This document shows positions 2,543 through 61,119 of a DNA stretch of 64,000 nucleotides, piece after piece. This DNA is from Escherichia phage Mangalyan, in sequence record OR449013. One strand, 5' to 3'. A program made the translations under genes and the position numbers. The notes under the pieces are model-generated. The model was not told the DNA's origin. It made no database searches and was given only the letters and a program-made list of their open reading frames with translations. Every line of letters begins with the position of its first letter. Position 1 is the first letter of the stretch.

Positions 2543-3156
2543 TGGATATTATTGTTCTTAACGCCCCACCTAGTAGTGGTAAGGATCACATTGCAGATCT
2601 CTTGTTGGAAGCTATTCCTAACTCACACCATCGTGAGGTTAAGGAGATGCTCTTCAGCGTGGCAATTAAGGCAGCTGGTGTAACTCCTCAACTCTGGAAT
2701 GCACTTTATGACCGCCACTACAAAGAAGAGCCTTGCCCTTTCTTAATGATAGACGGTAAGCATGTTTCTCCGCGAGAGTGGATGATCCATTGTAGTGAAA
2801 ATCTGATTAAACCTATCTTTGGTGAAGATGCTTTCGGTAAGGCCGCAGTCACATCCTTGAAGAAAGATTTCCCTAAAGGTAAAGGGGTTGTTGTTTACTC
2901 CGATGGTGGATTCAAAGAGGAGCTGGCATGCCTTAGTGAGTACGCATACAGCACAGGTGGAGATCTGTTGTTGTTCCGTATTCACCGTGTCGGATATGAC
3001 TGGGGAAATGATTCCAGAACCTATCTAAGTCTGGAAAAGAACGGAATAAAAGGGATTGAGTTCGATGTTGTAAACCCTGAAGGTGCACCTTGGGAGTGTG
3101 CATCGGAGATTGTGTGCAAGTATATTGATGCTAAAGAGGCCCAAGAAGAATGTTAA
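2542..3156 (+). CDS. deoxynucleoside monophosphate kinase-like (P-loop) protein
   Basis: SD GGAGG; N-terminal P-loop LNAPPSSGKD resembles the start of phage dNMP kinases. Confidence 0.5.
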   Translation: MDIIVLNAPPSSGKDHIADLLLEAIPNSHHREVKEMLFSVAIKAAGVTPQLWNALYDRHYKEEPCPFLMIDGKHVSPREWMIHCSENLIKPIFGEDAFGKAAVTSLKKDFPKGKGVVVYSDGGFKEELACLSEYAYSTGGDLLLFRIHRVGYDWGNDSRTYLSLEKNGIKGIEFDVVNPEGAPWECASEIVCKYIDAKEAQEEC

Positions 3157-3743
3157 TCGGAATTGATGTAGATTTGACACTGGTAGATTCAGGAACAGCA
3201 TGGTGGGAGTGGTTGGAGCGTTTGTATGGTCCAGCCAGTAAGACAGTCGCTAAACCTTCTAATGGACTGATGTATTACGATCTGTCAAAGTATTGGCCTG
3301 ATCGCCCCAAAGAAAACATCATAGGGCCTTTTGATTTCTGGAGTGACCCATTCCTCTACGACTTTCTTAAGCCTGAAGAGGGGGCTATTGAGGTTATGAA
3401 AGATTTGGTGGCTCGTGGTCACAAGCTTGCATTTATCTCGGTATGCAAGAAAGGTCACCTTGCATCTAAATCAAGGTTCTTAAAGCGTTGGACCAGTGAT
3501 TTTATGGATCTGGACGATCACACCCAGGGTCACGGCTTCTACGCCACACATTTCAAAGGAAATGTGGCTGTAGATGTTATAATTGACGACAGGCATGAAT
3601 ACCTTAACCAATTCGCTTCACGACCTGAAGTTATTAAAATCCTAAAAGATACGCCTTATGAGCAATTCGAGGAGTTAAAGGTCAGTGTTGACTATACCGC
3701 CAATAGCTGGTATAAAATAGGAAAGTTTTTAGAAGGTATTTGA
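3150..3743 (+). CDS. HAD-superfamily 5'-(deoxy)nucleotidase-like protein
   Basis: N-terminal GIDVDLTLVD matches HAD motif I DxDxT; later IIDDRHEY. Confidence 0.45.
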   Translation: MLIGIDVDLTLVDSGTAWWEWLERLYGPASKTVAKPSNGLMYYDLSKYWPDRPKENIIGPFDFWSDPFLYDFLKPEEGAIEVMKDLVARGHKLAFISVCKKGHLASKSRFLKRWTSDFMDLDDHTQGHGFYATHFKGNVAVDVIIDDRHEYLNQFASRPEVIKILKDTPYEQFEELKVSVDYTANSWYKIGKFLEGI

Positions 3744-4986: not shown

Positions 4987-5014
4987 AATGGCTCACTTTG
5001 TTGGTGAGCCAGAA

Positions 5015-5488
5015 ATGGAGACAGATATGAGTAATGTTATGATTCCTAAAAAGACATTTATTTCAGTTACTTTAGATTTCCTAGCTACCGTCCCTGGGTT
5101 TAACGTTCGCACACGAAACGGTCTCCGAGCTGCACTCTTTGCCGTAGGGTTTGATTTAAAAAGTATTGATGTTCTTCGTGGAAAAAACGTTCGATGCAAA
5201 AATAAGCCAACACATTATCGAAAGGCAGATGTATTTGCTGGTGTTATGCGTGCAGACTTTAGATACCCGCAAATGTATAACGGTGTAGATATTTTAGATG
5301 TGGATAAAGCACCTGGTGAGGCAATGCTTGTTCAAGATCTCCCGTATGATATCCCAGTAGAGGATCGTGTTAATGTAAGAAAGTATACAAAACAATCTGA
5401 AAAGGCTGAAGATATTCATATTGTTGATGAACCTTTCAATTTTGAAGATCTGCATCGCCTGGAAAAATTATTCGGTATTGAAAGCTAA
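5015..5488 (+). CDS. hypothetical protein
   Basis: ORF track start 4988 lies 1 nt after the -10, so a downstream in-frame ATG is preferred (5015 with GGTGAG SD, or 5027 with GGAGA SD). Confidence 0.45.
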   Translation: METDMSNVMIPKKTFISVTLDFLATVPGFNVRTRNGLRAALFAVGFDLKSIDVLRGKNVRCKNKPTHYRKADVFAGVMRADFRYPQMYNGVDILDVDKAPGEAMLVQDLPYDIPVEDRVNVRKYTKQSEKAEDIHIVDEPFNFEDLHRLEKLFGIES

Positions 5489-29790: not shown

Positions 29791-31319
29791 CACACAATTA
29801 GTTGCCCGGCTAAAGTGCTGGGAGCACCCATAACACATCTTTCAACTAAATTTTCTACCACCACAATCACTTACCTCCCACACATGACTGTTTGCTTGTT
29901 TAGTGAGCAGTCATGCCTTGACATTCTTGCCTATCCTGATAAAATTAAGTTCTTCTCTTTTCTTTTACCGAGTAATTCGGGTTTTCTGTTCTCTTCGGTT
30001 TGAAGGGGTATGGAGATACACCTGAGTGAACAGGGTGAACAACCGAACCATTGGCTATGGCATTAGCATGGCGAAGCGGACGGGTGACGAAAGAGGGGCC
30101 GGAGGACACCAGTCACTGCCATATGATATATGGGTGATAACCTGAAGAGTCTGAATAAGTGTTTAAGTACCAGTCAGAGGAAAAGGTGAATGGTAGCCGA
30201 AGGGGGAGGGGGGTTACCTGCTTCTGTAAACATGCATCTGAAATACTACTTTAGATAACCTGAACCTGCCTTTCTGACAAATATTCCCTATTAAACTTGA
30301 ATTATTTATAGAAAATACCACAACACCACTTAAGTCTTTGATTTTACACACAAATCTTACAGATATTAAACCTCTCTATTTAACATACCTGTAACATATA
30401 CTATACTCCACCTGTCTGATCAATTTCCCCAACTACATCCCCATATTTTCCCTGTCTGTACTACCCCTGCCCCGCCGGGAGTCCCGTCATATCTGGCTTT
30501 CCAGCAAATATCACACCCACAAATATCATCACCTGAAGAGGGTTTCATCCCATAATACATGCCTTACCTGAAGAGCGCTTCATACACCACATAAATTTTT
30601 TAATTGACCCCCTCCCCGCCGCCGGAGAGGTTGGCTTTTCCCACACAGACCTGGAGAGTCAGCCAGAAATATCTGAAGAGGGTCTAGTTCTGCCCTGTCA
30701 TAAGCGGTAGCGACTGGAGTGCTGCTAGGCGGACGAAATGGGAATACTTCTCATTCTTATAACAATTCTCAAATATCGAGGCAGTGAGGCAAATTAATAG
30801 GTGAGGCCGTTCACACAGTGGCACAACATTTGCAACCTATCTTGTGGGATTGAATGAGAATACCTATCATTGTGAGAACTGTTATCATTACGGGCAATTT
30901 AACATAATACCCATTATGCGCACCACTGGCGATACATACAGGGATTGATAACATGGGTTACTGTTTACGCACATAACAATTATATTTCTTACTATTTGTG
31001 TGGGATATAGTTAGCAGCCGATAGATTAGATATTAACCTGCAGACTTCTGACCGTCCAGACGTCTAAACGCCCACACACCAAGGATTATACATACACTCC
31101 TGAATGTAAACAGGGCCGCAAAAATGCTACCATACAAGCTTGTAAATTTTTCATGCAGCACTTGACAAAGAGGAGAAAAACTTGTCTGACATAATGTGAC
31201 CTAACTGACACAACATGACACTTTTACACACCTATTAGTTTACACACTGGATTGTTTACATTCCTGATTGTTCACATGCTAACCATTTACATGATTGACT
31301 GTTTACACACCGATAATCA

Positions 31320-31339
31320 GCCATGCCATTCGTTTGCAT
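31320..31339 (+). repeat. 20-nt direct repeat GCCATGCCATTCGTTTGCAT (copy 1)
   Basis: identical 20-mer recurs at 31551..31570. Confidence 0.7.
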
Positions 31340-31397
31340 GACAATAATTATACATGACAATAATCGCACTGATCATAATTAGCATGACATAATATAA

Positions 31398-31437
31398 AAG
31401 CAGGGCAACTATTAGCAGATCTATAGTTGCCTTGCTT
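31398..31437. repeat. inverted repeat, 15-nt arms around a 10-nt spacer containing AGATCT
   Basis: AAGCAGGGCAACTAT ... ATAGTTGCCTTGCTT (1 mismatch); GGCAACTAT/ATAGTTGCC recurs at ~31464 and ~31563. Confidence 0.65.
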
Positions 31438-31550
31438 GTTATGTCATGATTAACTAAATACAAGGCAACTATGATCTGATTAATAGTTTGCAGACAAACT
31501 ATCACGGGGGTGATGGTTACTGCTTTTATATTATGTCGCGACTCCGTCGC

Positions 31551-31570
31551 GCCATGCCATTCGTTTGCAT
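31551..31570 (+). repeat. 20-nt direct repeat GCCATGCCATTCGTTTGCAT (copy 2)
   Basis: identical to 31320..31339. Confidence 0.7.
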
Positions 31571-32176
31571 AGTTGCCTTATTGTTACAGATAAAATAATT
31601 GTATTGTTAATTATTTCTTATCTTTCTATTAGTCATCTAATGATTTCAGTTAATATAGTAACGTACAGTAAACATTAGACGACTAAAGATTTCTATGCTT
31701 ATGGTAACCTAACGTGACAATTCCAGACTGTTTACGAAAAATGTTGACACCTGGGCCGATTTATGTTATGCAGTTTACACGAATAATTATTTTATGCAGG
31801 TATTGACTATTCCGTTATTCTATGGTTGGAATAAATGCTTAGCAGGCTATAGAATGGCGAGCGTACGTAAATTCTGAGATCTGGCGGCTATAGTTATACT
31901 CGATTTTTCACGTAGAAAACGCTTTTGTAGTTATGTAAGTGTATGACTTATAAAGTTGACAAGCTATTGAATATATGCATCAGGTTAAATTTTGTGCAAA
32001 TGCTGCATTACGTGCAATTTTGGAAGGAAAAACGTGTAAAAATGGCCCTGCTACCACACAATGAAAAATTATGCAATAGTTATTTTATATGTATGTTTGT
32101 ACAGTGTGTGGGATTGATGGCTCGTCAATTATTCCACTTGCCAGGTAGGGCCGTTTATGGTAGGGGGAAGAGCAGA

Positions 32177-32202
32177 CAAAAAGAAAGGGGCCTAAGCCCC
32201 TT
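32177..32202 (-). terminator. rho-independent terminator closing the - strand gene block
   Basis: on - strand AAGGGGC-ttag-GCCCCTT followed by TCTTTTTGTCT. Confidence 0.55.
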
Positions 32203-33760: not shown

Positions 33761-33784
33761 CGGTTTTTATAGTTCTTATATGAC

Positions 33785-33829
33785 AGGCAGGCCCGGTGAT
33801 TGTCTCCACCCGTCGCCAGGTGCCTGCCG
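33785..33829 (-). repeat. GC-rich hairpin element, copy C (reverse orientation)
   Basis: reverse complement CGGCAGGCACCTGGCGACGGGTGGAGACAATCACCGGGCC matches 42999..43034 and 43133..43174. Confidence 0.6.
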
Positions 33830-33888
33830 TGAAACAAGTATAACAAAAAACAGGACCATTGCAAGCCCTGTTTTGTAGTTTATAAGGA

Positions 33889-35806: not shown

Positions 35807-35881
35807 GATTTTTATCCTCTTTGTGGTTGGTGGGGCTTGTTGCCCCCTTTGATTTATATACTACAGTTTTATATGGTCATG

Positions 35882-36115
35882 TCAACACTTTTCAAAAAAT
35901 TTTTCTGCCGTGATATTCTTCCCGGTAGGGTTCGCTACTTTCAAAATTTTATCATGCACTGGACGCCCAAAAGAATAAGATCCGTATACAGTAAACCAAT
36001 AATCTCCGTCAGGCTGTACTATTACCGCCGCATATGGTACGCCTTTTTCGTTTTTGCTGACAAAATAGATCACATTACCATTAATAGCCTCAGCGCGTTT
36101 AATTTGTTCCATCAT
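35882..36115 (-). CDS. hypothetical protein
   Basis: 77-aa ORF, SD AGAGAGG. Confidence 0.5.
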   Translation of the reverse strand: MMEQIKRAEAINGNVIYFVSKNEKGVPYAAVIVQPDGDYWFTVYGSYSFGRPVHDKILKVANPTGKNITAEKFFEKC

Positions 36116-38671: not shown

Positions 38672-39295
38672 TTATGAAAAAGTCATCTCGCCATATTCAT
38701 CCACATCAAACCGCCAATCATTGGCCTCGATAAGGCCGATCAGGTTTTCGGTAGTGAATTGTTCAAGATAGGCCCCCTCCAGGTCTACGTAAACCTTGCG
38801 GGATAGCTCCCGTACCGTCTCGGTGATCAGCTCTTCCAGGTCTTCCACTTTGTTTTCTTGTTTGGCGGTCAGATCTAGCCAGGTGGTATCAATGTATCCG
38901 CTTACAGTGTTTTCATGGCTGTAATGGCTGTACTTGTCGCGTTCAACACTGGCCGATAACTCGCCATCGTGCATTGTGCCGAACAAGTGACGAATTGATC
39001 GGAACTTGGTCAGGGCCTTGACTTTACGCAAGAATTTTTCTAAGTCTACATTTTCAGCACTAATCGATGCGCCATCGCCTTGACACCAAAAGCCGGACCA
39101 ATGTACTTCGGTATCTTCAAGGCCGTACTCTGGAAAAACTTGTTCTTTATAGTATTCAATTACATTTTCTGCAAAAAAGTTATCCCCGCTGTGTTCTTCT
39201 CTTTCGCGTACCATTTCAATGGCTTTTTCTTTTTGTTCGTCGGTCAGCACGTCGAAAGATAAATTGTAACCTGTGGTAATGTTAACGGTGGTCAT
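38672..39295 (-). CDS. hypothetical acidic protein, 207 aa
   Basis: SD AGGAG; conserved-looking HWSGFWCQGDGASI block; family not recognised. Confidence 0.5.
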   Translation of the reverse strand: MTTVNITTGYNLSFDVLTDEQKEKAIEMVREREEHSGDNFFAENVIEYYKEQVFPEYGLEDTEVHWSGFWCQGDGASISAENVDLEKFLRKVKALTKFRSIRHLFGTMHDGELSASVERDKYSHYSHENTVSGYIDTTWLDLTAKQENKVEDLEELITETVRELSRKVYVDLEGAYLEQFTTENLIGLIEANDWRFDVDEYGEMTFS

Positions 39296-39369
39296 GATAT
39301 TTTCTCCTGTTTTCTTTGTTAGTGGCGGGAAGTTTTCCCGCCTATGTTTTTAATTATACTTATCAAGAT

Positions 39370-39630
39370 TTACTTGTCAACACTATTTTTTAAATTATTG
39401 TGGCGCAAAATGTTTAAAATCTCCTCAACGTCATCAACACGGCGGCAATTTTTAAACGCTACCAATTGCCCCAAGATTTTAATTACTGGGCGGCCTTGCC
39501 AGTGACCTTGAAGAAAGCGCGCTTTAACTTTATCGGTGGAACTATCACGCCACCAAATAGCCTTGTTGTTGCAGTAGTAAAAATTATTCAGGATAACATC
39601 AACCTTATCAAAATTTTTTAATTTACGCAT
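39370..39630 (-). CDS. hypothetical basic protein
   Basis: 86-aa ORF, SD AAAGGAG. Confidence 0.5.
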   Translation of the reverse strand: MRKLKNFDKVDVILNNFYYCNNKAIWWRDSSTDKVKARFLQGHWQGRPVIKILGQLVAFKNCRRVDDVEEILNILRHNNLKNSVDK

Positions 39631-39840
39631 GGCGTTTACTCCTTTCTCTCTTTGATGTGGTTAGTATAGCTAACCTGTTTAAGATGTCAAGCTTTAAATA
39701 AAATCACTGTCAATAATATTTTTAACGCCATAAAACGGTCCTGGGCGATGTTTTCAGGTTAAAGGGGGCGATTTTGCATAGGTGGGGGCCTTTTTGGCGC
39801 TTACAGGGCCAACCAGGGGCGCTATTCGTAGGATAGAAAC

Positions 39841-39865
39841 AAAAAGCCCCGCACAATGGCGGGGC
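39841..39865 (-). terminator. rho-independent terminator
   Basis: on - strand GCCCCGC-cattgt-GCGGGGC followed by TTTTTGTTTC. Confidence 0.65.
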
Positions 39866-39873
39866 GTTGGTTG

Positions 39874-40071
39874 TTATTTGTCTTTATGGCGGTACCGTTC
39901 CGCCTGTCGTTCACGTTCCAAAAGTAGGCTGGGCAATTTACGATCATAATGATTGCGCCAGATCTTCCCAAACCTTTTTGGCTTATTCAGTTTATTGTTA
40001 CGCTGGCGGCGTTCCGGCAGCTCTTCGGAATCATGAGGGCGCTTTACAATTTTCTCGAAATTAATTTTCAT
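39874..40071 (-). CDS. small highly basic protein
   Basis: 65 aa, Arg/Lys-rich; SD GGGGGG. Confidence 0.45.
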   Translation of the reverse strand: MKINFEKIVKRPHDSEELPERRQRNNKLNKPKRFGKIWRNHYDRKLPSLLLERERQAERYRHKDK

Positions 40072-40415
40072 ATATTCCCCCCCTTGCTAACTTCAATATT
40101 GGCCTGAATGGCCCGGATACGGCGCTTTATAACTTCCTGATCTGTGTGATCGTATCCCCAAAAGTCCACAATTTTTGCGCCCCCCGCCTCCAGGCGGTAT
40201 AGTGTTTCCTGCATTTTGTAAGCCGGGATCGGTCGCGGTGTTACTTGGTCACCTTCTTTATTTTTATACTTTATAATATAATCTTCGTTATCGTTAAATG
40301 TCCAAAATGGATATTCTGCAAGGGCGGTACTTCCTCTTTCCTTTTTATCCTGGATCTTGTTTACAATTAAAGCCGTAGCAATAGCGCCAATAATAAAACT
40401 AGCCCCGCTAATCAT
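40068..40415 (-). CDS. membrane-anchored protein
   Basis: ATG 40415 with SD AAGGAG; N-terminal TM ISGASFIIGAIATALIV. Confidence 0.45.
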   Translation of the reverse strand: MISGASFIIGAIATALIVNKIQDKKERGSTALAEYPFWTFNDNEDYIIKYKNKEGDQVTPRPIPAYKMQETLYRLEAGGAKIVDFWGYDHTDQEVIKRRIRAIQANIEVSKGGNI

Positions 40416-42583: not shown

Positions 42584-42998
42584 GATTTTTTATCCTCTCT
42601 GTTAATTAGTGTGGTGTTGTTCACCTTGCGAGGATAAGAATAACAGAACTATCCGAGCTGTCAACCATTAGTTAGAATTATTTTTTGGGCAGAATTCTCC
42701 AGCCGCCGCCCCTGCCAGGTTAACCATCATTTTTTCGTACTCTTCTTTATGTTCCAACGCTCCCGCCATAGCCTTTTCAACCAGGGCGATAACTTCAGCG
42801 GCATTGATCGCTACATTTTCCAGGGGATTATATTACTTTTCATTTTTGTACCTCTTCTGTAGCTGCTTACTTTATAGCGTGGACCTGCCAGGCTGGCCCC
42901 GCCAGGTTGCAACGGTTAGCGCATCAGGTTAGAATTTTTTTTTTGAAAAGTGTTGACAGCGGCCCCGCCAGGTGGCACAATATACCTATCGAAAGGAC

Positions 42999-43034
42999 GG
43001 CAGGCACCGGTGACGGGGGAGACAACCACCGGGG
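42999..43034 (+). repeat. GC-rich hairpin element, copy A
   Basis: GGCAGGCACCGGTGACGGGGGAGACAACCACCGGGG; CCGGTG/CACCGG stem; followed by GAGAACGGTTATCATTATCATTTAAAAA. Confidence 0.6.
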
Positions 43035-43132
43035 ATGGGCGCTGCATAAAATGAGAACGGTTATCATTATCATTTAAAAATTTATGCAAAAAGTCCTTGC
43101 TTTCTTTGTCCTGTGTGATACTATAATAACAA

Positions 43133-43174
43133 GCCGGGGCAACAGGGGCCGGGAGACAATCACCGGGGGTGCCC
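43133..43174 (+). repeat. GC-rich hairpin element, copy B
   Basis: GGGGCCGGGAGACAATCACCGGGGGTGCCC; followed by GAGAATGATTATCATTCAAAAT. Confidence 0.6.
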
Positions 43175-43321
43175 GTTATTCTGCAAACGAGAATGATTAT
43201 CATTCAAAATTCTAAATGAGAACTCCTCGCATTTAATAAATTTAATTAGCATGCTAATTACCCTCCGTAACAATTTCCTATAAAACAGTATCCCATAAAA
43301 TATTCCCATATAGAAATTTTA

Positions 43322-43504
43322 AAAATCCATTTCTGAAAACGAAAAATCGATTTCGTCCCCAAAAATTTCAGGTCGAGATCCGGAACGATTTCCAGAAAAT
43401 CCGATTTAGAAAACGAAAAACAGATCGAGTACTGAGAAATTTATCGAGAAAAATTTTCAGAAAATCCAAGCCATGAAATGAAAAGTAGATCGAGTACTGG
43501 AAAA
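43322..43504. repeat. AT-rich iteron array (~60-nt period)
   Basis: three degenerate direct repeats built on TTTCAGAAAATCC...GAAAA..AGATCGAGTACTG; inverted copies near 43672-43700. Confidence 0.55.
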
Positions 43505-43806
43505 ATTGTACCGCAACCCACTGATAGTGATGGGTTTTCCGTCATAAATCACTAAGAGTGAGTGGAGAAAGGTATGGTGGAGAGGTGTGTATGTGTGGGA
43601 AATATGGAACGGTGATCTCGAGTATGGTGCAAACGGCTAGATAGATTGGCACAATTTTCCGCGCTTGTGTTGAAAAAATCCATTTTAGTTTTCGATCCAT
43701 TTTCTGATTTTCTAAGAATTTTAAAATATCTATGTGTTCAAAATATCAGGAGAAAATACATTTTAGAAATTCCCCTGATTTCTGGCAACTTGGCAATTTA
43801 AAAATA

Positions 43807-44139
43807 TCAGGTGCCCAGTTTGTTCTTTCCTTTATATAAACGCAAGGGTATAGTTTTTGTAACAGTCCACCTTCCCACACCTTCCCAGTTCCAGTTGTAG
43901 GCATGGTACCCGGTTACGCATGCACTGCTAGAGTGGTCATAGGCATAAGAGAACGCTATACGCACCAAATGGAACCAGTCTTTCCACGGTTGTGGTCCGT
44001 AAGCTTTTCTCCAACACCGACACAAACTAAATGTCTCAAGAATAGGCAGGATAACAAATCCATACACCGCCACCAGAATAGCCAGCGCAATGATTGTCAG
44101 GAATACATACCCTGCAGTTGAAACGATGATCTCTGTCAT
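43807..44139 (-). CDS. membrane protein
   Basis: N-terminal hydrophobic IIVSTAGYVFLTIIALAILVAVYGFVILPIL. Confidence 0.45.
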   Translation of the reverse strand: MTEIIVSTAGYVFLTIIALAILVAVYGFVILPILETFSLCRCWRKAYGPQPWKDWFHLVRIAFSYAYDHSSSACVTGYHAYNWNWEGVGRWTVTKTIPLRLYKGKNKLGT

Positions 44140-57039: not shown

Positions 57040-59118
57040 TTAAAAAGGTGTTTCATCGTCCTCAAAACCAGGGACAGGGTCAGAGGATGGATCATCGTAC
57101 TGGAGGTCTTCCTGCGTGTCAACAGGCTTAACAGTAGGAGTTACAACCTTATCAGCCACAACCTTACCCATAGGTGTTTCTACAACTGTATGCTCCTGAT
57201 CCTCAAACATAGCCTGAGGTCTCCAAACAACCTCCCCACCTTCTCCGTCTGTAAACATCTGCATTTCTTTGTCCCAGTACCAATTGCTGGCATCATGGAA
57301 CTTGCCTGTGTGAGGGTCCATAACTAAAGTGTCAGCAATACCTAAAGTTTTTGCTGGACGGTTTTTAAGACCTACCAGACGGACACGTCCACGAGAACGA
57401 TCCACCATTTCTTCGGCCTCGACACCTATGACTACCCAACTCAACTGTTCAAGCCCAGCCGATCCTCGCAAATTCTCTTTTCGCACAGGATACCAGAAAG
57501 GTAACGGGTTACCATCCTTGTCCTTAGGAGGCACAATCTCTATACGCTTGAGGTGAGCGATCACCAAGATAAACACGTTAAACTGCTTACAAAACGCAGC
57601 CAGTTGGGTCATAGCCATGTCCAGTTCTTTTCGCTCATCCTTAACATTAAGCCCTGAAATTACCATGGACAGGTGATCCAGTACAATATAACGACAATGG
57701 TACAGGCAAACCATTTGCTTAAGCTTAGTAATCAACTCGTCCACCGGAATAGATCCGAAATGTTTGAACACTTTGATTTTTCCAGCTTTTGCCCATGATT
57801 GGTGAATCTCTGCGTGTTCTTGATCAGTTAAAAACTGGCTAGGATCTTCAACAAACTCTTTAACATCAAACCCTAACTGGTTTGCATACAAGGAGTTAAT
57901 TGCTTCCTCTGGGTCCTCCTCAAGATGGATCATGCATAGACGATCATCCTCTTCGTAGTCATCGGCCTTCGGACATGTCGGGTCCATTAGGTATCTTGCA
58001 ATACAGTGTTCCAGTTTTTTAGCTACGGTTGTTTTACCGCCACCTGACGGACCTGTAAGCATTACAAGTGTCCCTTTGTGCAAGCCTTTTAGCATTTTTT
58101 GCAGTTTTGGGAACTCTGCGCTGATATCTACCCCGTTGGAAGTCTTTTTCCGCAAAGACTCGATAGAGAAGTCTTCTAAATCCGACACAGCATCAGGCAC
58201 ATATTTAACAGGGTGCCGGAACATGTTGACAATATCTTCCAGCTTTTTAGCCTTCAGCATGTCTCGGATATCTTTTACACCGTCAGGGTCGTTTACTTCA
58301 CCAGGGTATTCTACGTGGTAAACGTTATCGGCCATCAAAAATGCTGCGATATTGTGCGTGGCCTCAACACCTTTAATGACGTGTTTTTGCTTCTCTACCT
58401 CGTTAGCTGCATCGTTATCCATTGCCAGCACAACTGTTCCATAGCTACGGATAAACTTCTCATTGTTTGCAAAAGTATCTACTGCGTTTGCACATCCACA
58501 GTTAATTCCAACAAAAGGCAGGCAGGGTTTTCCTGCCAGATCACCACCATTGATAACTGCGTCGATCCCGTCCTGGACCTCTTTAGCCCACTGCTTCACC
58601 TTTGCCGGGGCTTTAGCGTTGGTGAGAATCCCTTTTACTTGTATCTGATATGCAGCCTGCCATGCTGCAATAACATCCCCTTCTCCCTCACAAACGTTAA
58701 TCTGCTTACGGTTGTTGGAAGATGCACACAGCTTTTGACCAAACATCTGAGAGTTAGCCTTTACGATGCCAACAACGGAGAAATGGCCCCTTTGCTCTTT
58801 AGGAATCGTCCAGTCACGCTTTTTGAAACCGGACAGATTTCCGTAGCGGTCGTAATATGGGAAATATGTTGCAGTGACTGTCACACCGTCTTCTTGGGAC
58901 AATGCTGATCGCACACCAAAATATTGTGCAGCCATCAGACCGATATTTTGTTGTGGGACAGGGACAATTTTAGTATTTTCTAAAACAGTTTCTACAGTTT
59001 CAACTTCTTTTTCATCACGATAGTCTCGTTTCACACTTCCCCCACTCTTATACTTAGTTGCTTTCGGGTTTGGCTCACCGAAACGGTTGTATGCAGATGC
59101 CATAAATTTACTTCCCAT
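57040..59118 (-). CDS. primase-helicase (TOPRIM primase domain + DnaB-like helicase, T7 gp4-like)
   Basis: TOPRIM-like INVCEGEGD and LAMDNDAAN; Walker A LTGPSGGGKTT; 692 aa; SD AAGGAG. Confidence 0.6.
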   Translation of the reverse strand: MGSKFMASAYNRFGEPNPKATKYKSGGSVKRDYRDEKEVETVETVLENTKIVPVPQQNIGLMAAQYFGVRSALSQEDGVTVTATYFPYYDRYGNLSGFKKRDWTIPKEQRGHFSVVGIVKANSQMFGQKLCASSNNRKQINVCEGEGDVIAAWQAAYQIQVKGILTNAKAPAKVKQWAKEVQDGIDAVINGGDLAGKPCLPFVGINCGCANAVDTFANNEKFIRSYGTVVLAMDNDAANEVEKQKHVIKGVEATHNIAAFLMADNVYHVEYPGEVNDPDGVKDIRDMLKAKKLEDIVNMFRHPVKYVPDAVSDLEDFSIESLRKKTSNGVDISAEFPKLQKMLKGLHKGTLVMLTGPSGGGKTTVAKKLEHCIARYLMDPTCPKADDYEEDDRLCMIHLEEDPEEAINSLYANQLGFDVKEFVEDPSQFLTDQEHAEIHQSWAKAGKIKVFKHFGSIPVDELITKLKQMVCLYHCRYIVLDHLSMVISGLNVKDERKELDMAMTQLAAFCKQFNVFILVIAHLKRIEIVPPKDKDGNPLPFWYPVRKENLRGSAGLEQLSWVVIGVEAEEMVDRSRGRVRLVGLKNRPAKTLGIADTLVMDPHTGKFHDASNWYWDKEMQMFTDGEGGEVVWRPQAMFEDQEHTVVETPMGKVVADKVVTPTVKPVDTQEDLQYDDPSSDPVPGFEDDETPF

Positions 59119-59872
59119 TAATTCTGCTCCTTACTACAGGCTCGTTTGCTAAGAATACGGCTTTTGCCCAGCCACGTGGTGTGAGGCTTCGGATCATCTT
59201 CGTTCTTGCACTCTTTCCACCCAGCTTGGCGTGTTGCATGGAATACCCGCTAACCGCGTCAACTATTTGCGGGACAGGTTTTGTGGCCGGGATTATAAAT
59301 CCATTACCTATCCAGCCGCAAGTTATTTTTGGATAGGCATCACGTGGAGCTATAAATTCAGGAAACCATGGGTTTACATCATCTTCCGGTAAATACCCGC
59401 CATAATCCGAAGGGTGAAAACGGTAATCAGGTTTGCGCCACAGTGTGGACATAACACCCACAGGATTCTCTACATGCCACGGGCAATCGTAAATCTCTCC
59501 CAGCTCTTCCGCAACCCGAGCATCCTTTACAGCATTAATTTGGATCATGGGGTCCTTAGCCAGCTTTTTCTTAAAATGTGCAGCACCTGATACCGCTAAA
59601 TGCGTGCACGGAGGAAATGCAAGAATAAAGTCTGGAGCCGGATACATGCAAAAAGTTTCCTGAGGGAACCACGGGTCAATCCAATAGTCCACATAGTGAA
59701 TGTTGGGATGATCGGTGATCACCTCTGCATAACTGCCGTGATCAGCGCCTTCTGCATTAAAGCACAGACACAGGTACCCAGCTTTTGCCCAGTCAATGAC
59801 TGCACCGCCAGATCCGTCAAATAGACTCCACACAACACCTTTGTGGTAGTGTTCTTTATAGATAAATTTCAA
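59108..59872 (-). CDS. DNA (cytosine-5)-methyltransferase-like protein (short form)
   Basis: motif I SLFDGSGG, motif IV FPPCTHLAVSGA, motif VI HVENPVG; TTG 59872 after AGGAGA assumed because track start 59902 falls inside the terminator hairpin. Confidence 0.5.
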   Translation of the reverse strand: MKFIYKEHYHKGVVWSLFDGSGGAVIDWAKAGYLCLCFNAEGADHGSYAEVITDHPNIHYVDYWIDPWFPQETFCMYPAPDFILAFPPCTHLAVSGAAHFKKKLAKDPMIQINAVKDARVAEELGEIYDCPWHVENPVGVMSTLWRKPDYRFHPSDYGGYLPEDDVNPWFPEFIAPRDAYPKITCGWIGNGFIIPATKPVPQIVDAVSGYSMQHAKLGGKSARTKMIRSLTPRGWAKAVFLANEPVVRSRINGK

Positions 59873-59889
59873 TTTGCTGTCTCCTAATG

Positions 59890-59917
59890 CAAAAAGCCCC
59901 ACCCTTTCGGGCAGGGC
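59890..59917 (-). terminator. rho-independent terminator (copy 2 of an identical pair)
   Basis: same GCCCTGCCC-gaaa-GGGTGGGGC + TTTTTGC as at 47291..47319. Confidence 0.7.
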
Positions 59918-59923
59918 CTAGTG

Positions 59924-60406
59924 TTAAACCCGGATACCTATTGTATACTCGGTGGATACCAATGTCAAATCTAAATTTAAAATTTCTTGCATCTCATAGT
60001 ATGCATCCAGGGTGAGATACATTTCCCCATCCTTTTCTACATACTTGTCCAAGTGCTTGAGGCATTTCGGATAACTATCAAGGGCAGCCTTTAGGCACTC
60101 AAACTCTGTGCTGTTGATGAGTCCTTCCATCTTGGCTACCCGTTCTGGGGTAACGATAGCACTGTAGTGAGATTTAGCTTCCTGAATGCAATGGGTCCAA
60201 GCATCAACTTTCTCTTCGAAAAGTCCGAAGAACTTCTTTTTGGTGAGCTTCAGATTCTTTAAGTGCTTAAGCACTCGGTTGCCGATCACAGCTACATCAC
60301 GAAACTTAAGGATCACTTTGTCGATATCCTCGCGGCCTATTTTCACAAAGCAAGCCTCACACATTTCAGGAGCTGCGTAACCTACTTTCCACATAAAATC
60401 TGACAT
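59924..60406 (-). CDS. hypothetical protein
   Basis: 160-aa ORF, SD AAGGAGA. Confidence 0.5.
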   Translation of the reverse strand: MSDFMWKVGYAAPEMCEACFVKIGREDIDKVILKFRDVAVIGNRVLKHLKNLKLTKKKFFGLFEEKVDAWTHCIQEAKSHYSAIVTPERVAKMEGLINSTEFECLKAALDSYPKCLKHLDKYVEKDGEMYLTLDAYYEMQEILNLDLTLVSTEYTIGIRV

Positions 60407-60418
60407 AACACTATCTCC

Positions 60419-60817
60419 TTATTCTTCCTGAAAAGCAACGATATCATATGAACTTGCAGACGATCCTGGTGAAGAATGACTCCAGTCTAGGTCATCAGAG
60501 TAGTCAGCGTATTGTGCACCACTACGTAGTTTATATTTTACCCACTTACCTGGTGCAGGGTTTTCACCACCTTCCCATACTTCCCAGCCTTCTGGCAGGC
60601 CGTCCTGGGGATAGTCATCCACCTCACTGATAATCTTAGGGTTTGGCACCAAGATCCCTGCAGGCTCCTCCTTCCGGATAAGTGTCCACACAACGTAGGT
60701 GTCTGAGCAGGAGCATGATAGCAAAGTATATCCACTGTTCAGAACTTCTGCAAGCTCTTTTTCAGCATCTTCCAATTTAGTTAAGTGGTATTGGAGAATC
60801 TTCACACCTGTAATCAT
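60419..60817 (-). CDS. hypothetical protein
   Basis: 132-aa ORF, SD GGGAGG. Confidence 0.5.
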   Translation of the reverse strand: MITGVKILQYHLTKLEDAEKELAEVLNSGYTLLSCSCSDTYVVWTLIRKEEPAGILVPNPKIISEVDDYPQDGLPEGWEVWEGGENPAPGKWVKYKLRSGAQYADYSDDLDWSHSSPGSSASSYDIVAFQEE

Positions 60818-61119
60818 CAGAAACCTCCCACTTCTTCAGCAAATGCAGCTGCTGTCGTCGCTGCATCCAGATAGGACTCTAGTTCACGGGCTGCACGTTT
60901 GTAAATTGAGTGGCGAATATCGTTTGGCAGTTGGTGGAAGTCCACCTCTTCACCGTTGTGGTAAACATGCACATCAGTGATCTGTCTAAATCCGTAATAG
61001 TCAACATCAGAATCACGGCACTCCGGGTCTGGCAACTGGACAACTGCCTGAGCTTCTACAGTGAACATATCGTCAAGTTCGAAATCGATTTCAAAAGTGT
61101 ATGGTTTATAACGTTTCAT
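60817..61119 (-). CDS. hypothetical acidic protein
   Basis: 100-aa ORF, SD AAGGAAG. Confidence 0.5.
   Translation of the reverse strand: MKRYKPYTFEIDFELDDMFTVEAQAVVQLPDPECRDSDVDYYGFRQITDVHVYHNGEEVDFHQLPNDIRHSIYKRAARELESYLDAATTAAAFAEEVGGF

Follow-up and report, generated by a model that had tools for sequence, protein, structure and literature searches.

A conserved noncoding module of about 0.9 kb lies at positions 42950-43770 of the 64,000-nucleotide (nt) stretch of Escherichia phage Mangalyan analyzed here (sequence record OR449013; hereafter, the window). Its central feature is a set of three long, imperfect direct repeats (R1-R3) in AT-rich DNA. Along the + strand, the module comprises a predicted promoter (P1), conserved element 1, palindrome 1, a second predicted promoter (P2), element 2, palindrome 2, an 18-nt palindrome, the three repeats, a spacer, and an AT-rich block. 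As judged from the genomes compared, the module is noncoding, is under purifying selection, and is conserved across two phage subfamilies with a fixed architecture. We tentatively favor the view that it is a transcription-activated replication-initiation region, in which the repeats would be sites for a lineage-specific phage protein, while granting this view somewhat less than an even chance. The module is not described in the literature searched, in which we found no transcriptome, origin mapping, or account of this region for Vequintavirinae. By sequence similarity, the window phage is an rV5-like coliphage of the genus Vequintavirus. The interval 42600-43900 matches 121 GenBank phage records by megablast, nearly all of them Escherichia myoviruses of this genus; the best match is phage DrSchubert (95.2% identity), and rV5 itself is 92.6% identical at rV5 116,407-117,755.

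The repeats are three direct copies of a 65-nt unit, found by repeat search at 43304-43368, 43378-43442, and 43443-43507; the copies share 62-74% identity and are spaced 74 and 65 nt apart. A sequence-only reading of the window had described three direct repeats of ~60 nt in an AT-rich region, and on both points it was right. The overlap between R1R2 and R2R3 has E = 2.6e-7 in a self-BLAST of the region, no other copy exists in the window, and the exact cores CAGAAAATCC, GAAAACGAAAA, and AGATCGAGTACTG are confined there to the repeat region; the array is also single-copy in the complete 137,947-bp rV5 genome. R2 (43378-43442; core CAGAAAATCCGATTTAGAAAACGAAAAACAGATCGAGTACTG) serves as the reference copy, and a 37-nt core of it aligns with the first repeat of Cronobacter phage CR3 at 81% identity. 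R1 is the most diverged (43304-43377; core AAAATCCATTTCTGAAAACGAAAAATCGATTTCG ... CAGGTCGAG; 62% identity to R2): it lacks AGATCGAGTACTG and has CAGGTCGAGATCC instead, after an insertion of ~9 nt. R3 (43443-43507; core CAGAAAATCCAAGCCATGAAATGAAAAGTAGATCGAGTACTG) is 74% identical to R2 and is present as two haplotypes among the aligned relatives. In an alignment of the window with 12 relatives (13 genomes, the basis of all column counts below), 19%, 23%, and 25% of columns vary in R1, R2, and R3, respectively. Tandem Repeats Finder reported only a 12-nt, 2.1-copy array at the locus, and no promoter within the repeats passed the promoter scan on either strand. The sequence-only reading had offered absence of the repeats from relatives as a ground for its own rejection; that ground falls away because the repeats are present in 115 of 116 Vequintavirus records.

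The repeats are followed by a hypervariable spacer (43508-43670) of fixed length, 163-164 nt, in which 68% of columns vary, against 26-49% at the third codon positions of the flanking genes, our measure of nearby synonymous change. Its + strand is G-rich and C-poor, with a GC skew of +0.25 to +0.42 in 13/13 genomes. Beyond the spacer stands a near-invariant, AT-rich right block (43671-43731; 13% of columns vary) that contains a direct copy of the short motif, AAAATCCATTTTAG, at 43675-43688 and two inverted copies of the repeat motif CAGAAAATCC, namely CCATTTTCTG (43697-43706) and GATTTTCTA (43706-43714). A further direct copy, GAGAAAATACATTTTAG, lies at 43750-43766 (88% in the repeat search) and is conserved in the alignment. 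Inverted partial copies had been claimed for 43672-43760; this is correct for CCATTTTCTG and GATTTTCTA and mistaken for the copies at 43672-43688 and 43750-43766, which both have the form AAAAT(C/A)CATTTTAG in direct orientation. The most AT-rich 300 nt of the window are 43185-43485 (30.7% GC), and among its AT-richest 100-nt intervals the one at 43671 ranks second and the one at 43233 third.

Three lines of evidence bear on the noncoding status and constraint of the module. First, the variable columns of four flanking genes show a strong excess in a single codon phase (counts of 48/4/5, 54/16/21, 17/7/4, and 31/4/4, with p values between 7e-3 and 4e-15), and no 3-nt phase is detected at 42916-43203 (p = 0.70), 43210-43507 (p = 0.58), or 43508-43670 (p = 0.80). 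The ORFs (open reading frames) annotated in the region vary from record to record, and the 95-residue ORF at 42916-43203 has no Pfam match, so a protein-coding module was rejected; the earlier description of the region as free of ORFs holds in the sense that it carries no coding signal. Accordingly, rV5 ORFs 198 and 199 and their equivalents in ~100 GenBank records lack a coding signature, and their annotation deserves correction. Second, the boxes, promoters, and repeats vary less than nearby synonymous sites (26-49%): no column varies in palindrome 2, 6% vary in P2, and 9-11% vary in palindrome 1, in the 18-nt palindrome, and in the GAGACAA elements, with 0-17% as the range over boxes and promoters. 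There is no indel in 42950-43470 in the 13 genomes. Third, searches for known features of two other kinds were negative. A known RNA family or tRNA was rejected: Rfam gave no match at gathering score for the window and three related loci (best sub-threshold score 22.8 bits against a cutoff of 126), and no tRNA was found. An origin in the host was likewise rejected, as 42940-43520 had no blastn match in 5,426 E. coli genomes. Sequence comparison supports the repeats as a genuine cis-acting noncoding element under selection.

The arrangement recurs in distant phages. Homologues of the flanking 132-residue protein are 37-43% identical in CR3 (host Cronobacter), phiTE (Pectobacterium), Tr1 (Citrobacter), and FBKp34 and KP13-16 (both Klebsiella), which belong to Certrevirus and Stephanstirmvirinae. 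Each of these five genomes has a noncoding gap of ~1 kb a few kb upstream of the gene for this protein. In CR3, phiTE, Tr1, and several 140-150-kb IMG/VR contigs, the parts stand in the same order: two antisense promoters, the GAGACAAnCACC element, palindromic boxes, three long repeats, spacer, and short-motif block. The number of long direct repeats is exactly three, spaced by 78/63 nt in CR3 and phiTE and by 67/76 nt in Tr1, and in these phages the repeats are directly followed by two to five AATGAGAATnATTCTCATT palindromes and then by a GGTGnTTGTCTC element. Further phage contigs of 140-150 kb came from an IMG/VR pattern scan; they carry these boxes too, and their repeats are spaced by 78/63, 67/75, and 65/74 nt. 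The sum of the two spacings is 139-143 nt wherever both are readable (65+74, 78+63, 67+76, 67+75). The repeat sequence, by comparison, is lineage-specific around a shared gene-strand core, GTTTTTCnnTTTTC, to which CTCGATC is added in Vequintavirus and Certrevirus, and the palindromes hold one consensus across all lineages compared. Lineage-specific repeats beside constant boxes are what one would predict for repeats that bind a phage-specific protein and boxes that bind a conserved one.

The closest match to CR3 covers 59 nt (window 43149-43207, - strand, against 1548-1606 of the CR3 locus; TTGAATGAtAATCATTCTC...CAGAATAaCGGGCACCCCCGGTGATTGTCTCC) at 90% identity (E = 3.5e-17). Because the flanking protein is only 38% identical between the two phages, this stretch ranks among the most constrained noncoding sequences of these genomes. 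FBKp34 and KP13-16 keep the promoters, the element, and the boxes but not the triple repeat, which is replaced by two 45-nt promoter-like repeats 186 nt apart (772-816 and 958-1002 of the extracted FBKp34 locus; 5002-5046 and 5188-5232 of the extracted locus L019, from a Klebsiella phage). With its TTGACA, 17-nt spacer, and CATAAT, each 45-nt repeat is a near-consensus sigma70 promoter in the gene direction; it also carries AAAATCCATAAT, similar to the window motif AAAATCCATTTT. Separately, CR3 1492-1785 and FBKp34 1052-1346 (locus coordinates) share ~300 nt of noncoding sequence at 77% identity although the two phages belong to different subfamilies. This stretch, which includes CTACCGGCGATyCACCTTCCGACCTGGCCCCG...GTACGTTAGCCCCGCC, has no obvious counterpart in the window and no Rfam match, and may be a structured RNA.

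The repeat locus is set within a long run of genes on the - strand. Upstream in transcription, at 44-64 kb, this run encodes the DNA polymerase, primase-helicase, and helicase; a cluster of small ORFs, with one sigma70-type promoter per ORF, lies downstream at 32.8-42.6 kb. The ORFs flanking the module match only PHROGs of 'unknown function', eight neighboring ORFs have no Pfam match at all, and the gene upstream of the module differs between genera. P1 and P2 are oriented against all neighboring genes and have no ORF or coding signal downstream. P1 (42953-42981, + strand; TTGACA, 17-nt spacer, CACAAT, with an upstream TG) scores 10/12 in the scan as a sigma70-like promoter, and the 20 nt upstream of it match those of a - strand early promoter exactly (35880-35899). 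P2 (43097-43127, + strand; TTGCTT, 19-nt spacer, TATAAT) is promoter-like by inspection of the sequence; the scan missed it because a 19-nt spacer falls outside its criteria. The tandem antisense pair is detected by the scan itself in CR3 (1820-1792 and 1658-1630), FBKp34 (1382-1353 and 1220-1193), and Tr1 (3929-3901 and 3762-3735; all in coordinates of the extracted loci), which with the window makes four genera. The two promoters of the pair are 144-167 nt apart across the four genera. The module also has a lower purine fraction in gene orientation, 0.41-0.50, than the flanking genes (0.53-0.56, five phages); the resulting purine richness of the antisense strand fits antisense transcription. 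One sigma70-like site points in the gene direction (43760-43788, - strand; TTGCCA, 17-nt spacer, TAAAAT) and is lineage-specific, since its -35 hexamer lies in variable sequence that is not conserved in rV5 and others.

A conserved GAGACAAYCACC element is part of the module and is found downstream of each promoter. Element 1 (42995-43045, + strand) contains GAGACAACCACC at 43019-43030, and element 2 (43134-43176, + strand) contains GAGACAATCACC at 43153-43164. Element 2 is one of the 'GC-rich hairpins' that the sequence-only reading placed beside the array. These elements are conserved as sequence, but a shared fold is not apparent: RNAalifold on eight homologues of the GC-rich element returned 0 pairs and no consensus structure, the fold z-score of element 2 is only -0.56, and single-sequence folds are at most modestly better than those of shuffles. 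A conserved RNA hairpin was rejected on these grounds. A third promoter-plus-GAGACAATCACC copy occurs at 33780-33860 on the - strand, in the gene direction and within the early gene cluster (TTGCAA, 16-nt spacer, TATACT, then ACGGCAGGCACC...GGAGACAATCACCGGG, the element sequence itself at 33780-33830), and it is directly followed by another promoter (TTGACA, 17-nt spacer, TAACAT). Between the palindromic boxes and the repeats, a perfect 18-nt palindrome, TAATTAGCATGCTAATTA (43243-43260; 2/18 columns vary), looks like an operator from its sequence.

The two longer palindromes resemble binding sites of the host metalloregulator Fur. A scan of the window with the 19-bp consensus GATAATGATAATCATTATC ranked palindrome 1 (43049-43075; GAGAACGGTTATCATTATC at 43053-43071, 16/19) first and palindrome 2 (43185-43207; GAGAATGATTATCATTCAA at 43189-43207, 15/19, invariant in the 13 genomes) second; the boxes stand 50-90 nt downstream of P1 and P2. 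The rV5 allele of palindrome 1 (at 116910) reaches 17/19 and is the best match in the whole rV5 genome, and palindrome 2 belongs to the 59-nt stretch shared with CR3. Shuffled genomes gave 0-4 matches at four or fewer mismatches. Boxes of this kind recur at two to six per genome in six phages, over five enterobacterial host genera, some at a 29-nt spacing and with one site of 17/19 in Citrobacter phage Tr1. Further boxes lie at 30734-30755 and 30847-30892 of the window, so that both noncoding regions flanking the early gene cluster carry them. In CR3, the half-sites of a box differ from each other in a way that would break an RNA stem yet still fits the hexamer consensus. On this basis, the palindromes are read as DNA operators, with host Fur or a conserved phage protein as the candidate ligand. 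The phage protein could be the real ligand. Consensus matches can mislead: two E. coli Fur sites predicted in this way were shown not to bind (PMC2189734).

In the initiation reading that we favor, host RNA polymerase would start at the tandem sigma70 promoters P1 (42953-42981) and P2 (~43097-43127), and purine- and G-rich transcripts would cross the Fur-box-like palindromes and the 18-nt palindrome into the AT-richest DNA with its three repeats. There, a protein-DNA complex of ~200 bp, together with the transcript as opener or primer, would let a T7-like replisome (PolA and a gp4-like primase-helicase) start. Proteins bound to the palindromes, whether host Fur or a conserved phage protein, would gate the transcription that reaches the repeats. 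We infer the firing of the promoters, the binding of proteins, and the start of replication at the module. Several findings favor initiation activated by transcription, which, unlike any rival, gives every part of the module a role. Predicted tandem promoters without an ORF, a pair conserved in four genera, lead into AT-rich DNA, and the module is common to all lineages compared. The G-rich, C-poor + strand downstream of the promoters is the sole hint, and an indirect one, of a transcript primer or R-loop. A T7-type replisome is in keeping with the rV5 proteins: gp223 resembles T7 DNA polymerase, and gp225 is a primase/helicase (PMC3606486).

The sequence-only reading had taken the array for the classic iteron arrangement of an origin or partition site next to helicase and primase genes, and as stated this is not supported. 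Origin function is still our leading interpretation, in the transcription-activated form and with the tentativeness expressed above; membership in the classical iteron-origin family is not supported by the sequence. The units are ~65 nt long, 62-74% alike, and unphased; the region has no DnaA boxes and no adjacent initiator gene; and 10-20 kb separate it from the helicase, primase, and polymerase genes. Nothing supports a partition site: no parA/parB-type genes were found beside the module, whose eight neighboring ORFs lack a Pfam match, and the phage is virulent.

Several observations weigh against initiation at the module. Repeat searches found no short phased iterons, only units of ~65 nt spaced 63-78 nt apart. 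No TTATCCACA DnaA box with one mismatch or fewer occurs in 42600-43900, oriC-type 13-mers are at chance level only, and GATC sites are not clustered in the module, where their density does not exceed the window average; a single IHF core match does not exceed chance expectation. The module adjoins no initiator or partition gene, as the flanking ORFs have no functional Pfam or PHROG match. On the + strand, GC skew goes from -0.08 left of the module to -0.13 on its right, which is not the minimum of a bidirectional origin: the shift at 43 kb is small and in the wrong direction, and strand skew was discarded as an origin mark. An earlier skew analysis of rV5 located no origin and found changes only at transcription switches (PMC3606486). 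The repeats of the Certrevirus phages CR3 and phiTE are 49-50% GC and not AT-rich, so the repeats themselves do not appear to be a conserved unwinding element. P2 has a 19-nt spacer in the window, Fur-type operators suggest transcription control and are not a known origin component, and the third promoter-plus-GAGACAAtCACC unit in the early cluster means that the element is not origin-specific. Phage ICP1, with a related replisome and a mapped origin close to 60 kb, was considered as a guide and set aside, as 50-70 kb of HQ641347 contains no comparable noncoding gap.

Two other loci compete with the module for the role of origin, which also counts against it. First, at rV5 65151-65236, outside the window, four tandem palindromic iterons of 21-22 bp (GTGTCCGTATCACGGACAG) adjoin an almost pure AT run of ~45 nt directly 3' of ORF79. 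This ORF encodes 116 residues, matches HTH_36 with 24.5 bits against a Pfam gathering cutoff of 25, and is named 'replication initiation protein' in RefSeq. Judged by its sequence, the ORF79 locus is the textbook arrangement that the sequence-only reading had envisaged for the window. The locus (rV5 65,105-65,658) is conserved in 118 Vequintavirus records and limited to that genus, with no ORF79 homologue outside it by tblastn. Second, a repeat-rich noncoding region of 2 kb at window 30200-32200 corresponds to rV5 104,013-106,618, a 'non-coding' box in the rV5 paper (PMC3606486), and is another candidate origin or packaging (pac) region. It is located where + and - strand gene blocks converge. 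Repeats of the TGTTTACA type are numerous in it, inverted GGCAACTAT repeats are bracketed by the two copies of a perfect 20-nt direct repeat (31320 and 31551), and it also has a perfect 18-nt inverted repeat (31386 and 31520) and the AT-richest 100 nt of the window (31578).

The strongest rival, which we consider rather unlikely, is a region that heads the early gene cluster and controls its transcription with a link to Fur, and at which replication would not start. Host Fur or a conserved phage repressor would occupy the palindromes, a phage protein the repeats, and the antisense promoters would add interference, a roadblock, or insulation between the replication genes at 44-64 kb and the early ORFs at 32.8-42.6 kb, perhaps in an iron-dependent manner. 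The boxes fit this well. The best Fur-consensus matches of the window (16/19 and 15/19) and of rV5 (17/19) fall inside the module, the same boxes recur in all six phages noted above, and their half-sites vary independently and without compensation, as expected of a degenerate protein operator and not of an RNA stem. An arrangement of TTGAAT, 18-nt spacer, and CAGAAT in the gene direction overlaps box 2; it is below the scan threshold and conserved in most lineages; in phiTE and the related locus L030, however, its -10 is CGGAAT, a poor one. More boxes in the second noncoding region across the early cluster, and the promoter-plus-GAGACAAtCACC unit inside it, point the same way. A control region nevertheless offers no role for three long, lineage-specific repeats of fixed overall span and leaves the antisense promoters without an ORF to express. 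Dense conservation over ~500 nt would be unusual for a plain operator region, and Fur binding here is a consensus match, of the kind that can fail (PMC2189734).

Control by iron and initiation could also be combined, in a Fur-gated, iron-sensing origin or early-to-middle switch of virulent rV5-like and phi92-like myoviruses; we regard this as a long shot. Fur on the palindromes would gate ORF-less antisense transcription into a triple array of phage-protein sites, and DNA synthesis or the early-to-middle transition would be triggered there.

A noncoding RNA locus is improbable, though slightly less of a stretch than the iron-gated switch. Here, P1 and P2 would produce + strand RNAs in which the repeats are A-rich modules (GAAAACGAAAAACAGA); these would sequester a host RNA-binding protein or defense nuclease, sponge- or decoy-like, in the manner of the PhiTE pseudo-ToxI RNA. 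The ORF-less promoters in four genera, the purine-rich sense strand, and the dense sequence constraint agree with such a locus, and its G-rich, C-poor spacer would evade Rho. PhiTE provides a precedent in a repetitive decoy RNA, at another locus, 106,714-106,772 (PMC3475682). The expected marks of an RNA are nonetheless missing: Rfam returned nothing at gathering score (22.8 bits against 126), the scan found no terminator-like site downstream on the + strand, the promoter-proximal element has no conserved secondary structure and weak fold z-scores, and the palindromic boxes behave as DNA sites. The repeats, 62-74% alike and unevenly spaced, are also unlike type III antitoxin arrays, which consist of near-identical copies at a constant period of 34-45 nt; the period here is an uneven 63-78 nt. 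Direct ToxI mimicry was rejected, as the PhiTE pseudo-ToxI is at another locus and its repeats differ in form.

A pac region, in which the small terminase would bind the repeats and the short-motif block and cut in the spacer between them, is very unlikely. The layout is suggestive, with three repeats, a hypervariable spacer of a fixed 163 nt, and an invariant block carrying the short motif in both orientations, and lineage-specific repeat sequence is usual for terminase specificity. Both rV5 and PhiTE are reported to be circularly permuted and terminally redundant (PMC3606486; PMC3475682). The large terminase gene of rV5 (58,027-60,872), however, lies ~56 kb from the module (~116.8-117.6 kb). 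Pac sites are almost always inside or beside the small terminase gene. Packaging also gives no role to the promoters and Fur-like boxes, and the start points of GenBank records, tried as a proxy for pac, were inconsistent and show no consistent terminus at the module. That the array is a functionless chance repeat is scarcely credible: AT-rich DNA readily gives short imperfect repeats, and the copies are only 62-74% identical, but the self-BLAST E of 2.6e-7, variability below that of synonymous sites, and the recurrence of the three-repeat architecture in distant genera contradict it. A CRISPR-like mini-array was rejected because its 'spacer' parts are conserved between phages; we also take the repeats to bear no resemblance to E. 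coli CRISPR repeats. The remaining probability belongs to causes of the module outside the readings considered here.

The borders of the module vary among relatives. Its left edge (window 42680-42890) is indel-polymorphic: an additional ~48 nt is present at 42886 in most relatives, ~170 nt are missing from phiWec193, and a small ORF equivalent to rV5 ORF197 is apparently broken by a stop codon in the window phage. On the other side, phage 241Ecol014PP has an extra 214-residue ORF without a Pfam match (3097-3741 of its extracted locus), placed exactly between the module and the upstream gene for a 110-residue protein; the insertion point corresponds to window ~43817. At the loci examined, 16-18 records labeled 'Campylobacter phage' (MG0656xx) are 80-99% identical to this group of Escherichia phages, and their host label seems doubtful.

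The module has survived a divergence that left the flanking protein at ~40% identity, which places it among the most constrained sequences in these genomes. The rV5-like (Vequintavirinae) and phi92-like phages are widely isolated and are used in cocktails for phage therapy and biocontrol. If the module is an origin, it could make these phages easier to engineer and reboot and could guide the design of interfering plasmids. If the palindromes bind Fur, a strictly virulent phage would have made a host metal sensor part of its own program, a rare arrangement, and the iron-gated version, if true, would amount to a phage origin or switch controlled by a host metalloregulator in two subfamilies and five host genera.

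Comparison with known systems places the module between several classes. Enterobacterial Fur operator arrays share with it the 15-17/19 consensus match, the clustering, and a consensus kept across five host genera; the boxes of the module differ in belonging to a virulent phage and in standing downstream of ORF-less promoters, not clearly over a -35 or -10. Among packaging sites, lambda cosB has three R sites bound by gpNu1, SPP1 has the pacL-pacC-pacR arrangement, and P1 has its own pac. The module has in common with lambda cosB and SPP1 pac three spaced repeats and a second binding block, putative in the module, across a sequence-free interval, and it differs in its distance from the terminase genes. 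The PhiTE pseudo-ToxI RNA likewise comes from a noncoding locus with repeats, and PhiTE belongs to the same group of phages. The pseudo-ToxI locus consists, however, of 36-nt, near-identical ToxI-like tandem copies at 106,714-106,772, whereas the PhiTE module, at ~38,964-40,262, has degenerate units of 63-78 nt.

Iteron origins (lambda ori, plasmids P1, F, pSC101, and RK2, and PLE) share with the module direct repeats with internal dyads, beside DNA that in the window is AT-rich, and a repeat sequence that co-varies with lineage. In the PLE of Vibrio cholerae, the repeats of a noncoding region are the RepA-bound origin (PMC7145576). Iterons differ in being 17-22 bp long and in helical phase, against ~65-nt units in the module, which lacks a rep gene, DnaA boxes, and significant IHF sites. 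Transcription-activated origins include T4 oriF, oriG, and oriE and the origin of lactococcal phage c2. The c2 origin is noncoding, and the untranslated transcript of an early promoter takes part in initiation; 'Per' origin fragments are found in 936 and P335 phages. Shared with c2 and 'Per' are an AT-rich noncoding region, direct and inverted repeats, ORF-less transcription (predicted in the module), and a position near early genes; the sequences are unrelated, and the host and replisome are different. In the T7 primary origin, promoters phi1.1A and phi1.1B are followed by an AT-rich segment. T7 has neither long repeats nor Fur-like palindromes, and the module has both between its promoters and the AT-rich DNA; the predicted module promoters, moreover, are of the host sigma70 type and directed against the flanking genes. 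What the module shares with the T7 primary origin and with T4 oriF and oriG are tandem promoters (predicted in the module) leading into an AT-rich noncoding stretch, a T7-type replisome, and the lack of a DnaA-type site.

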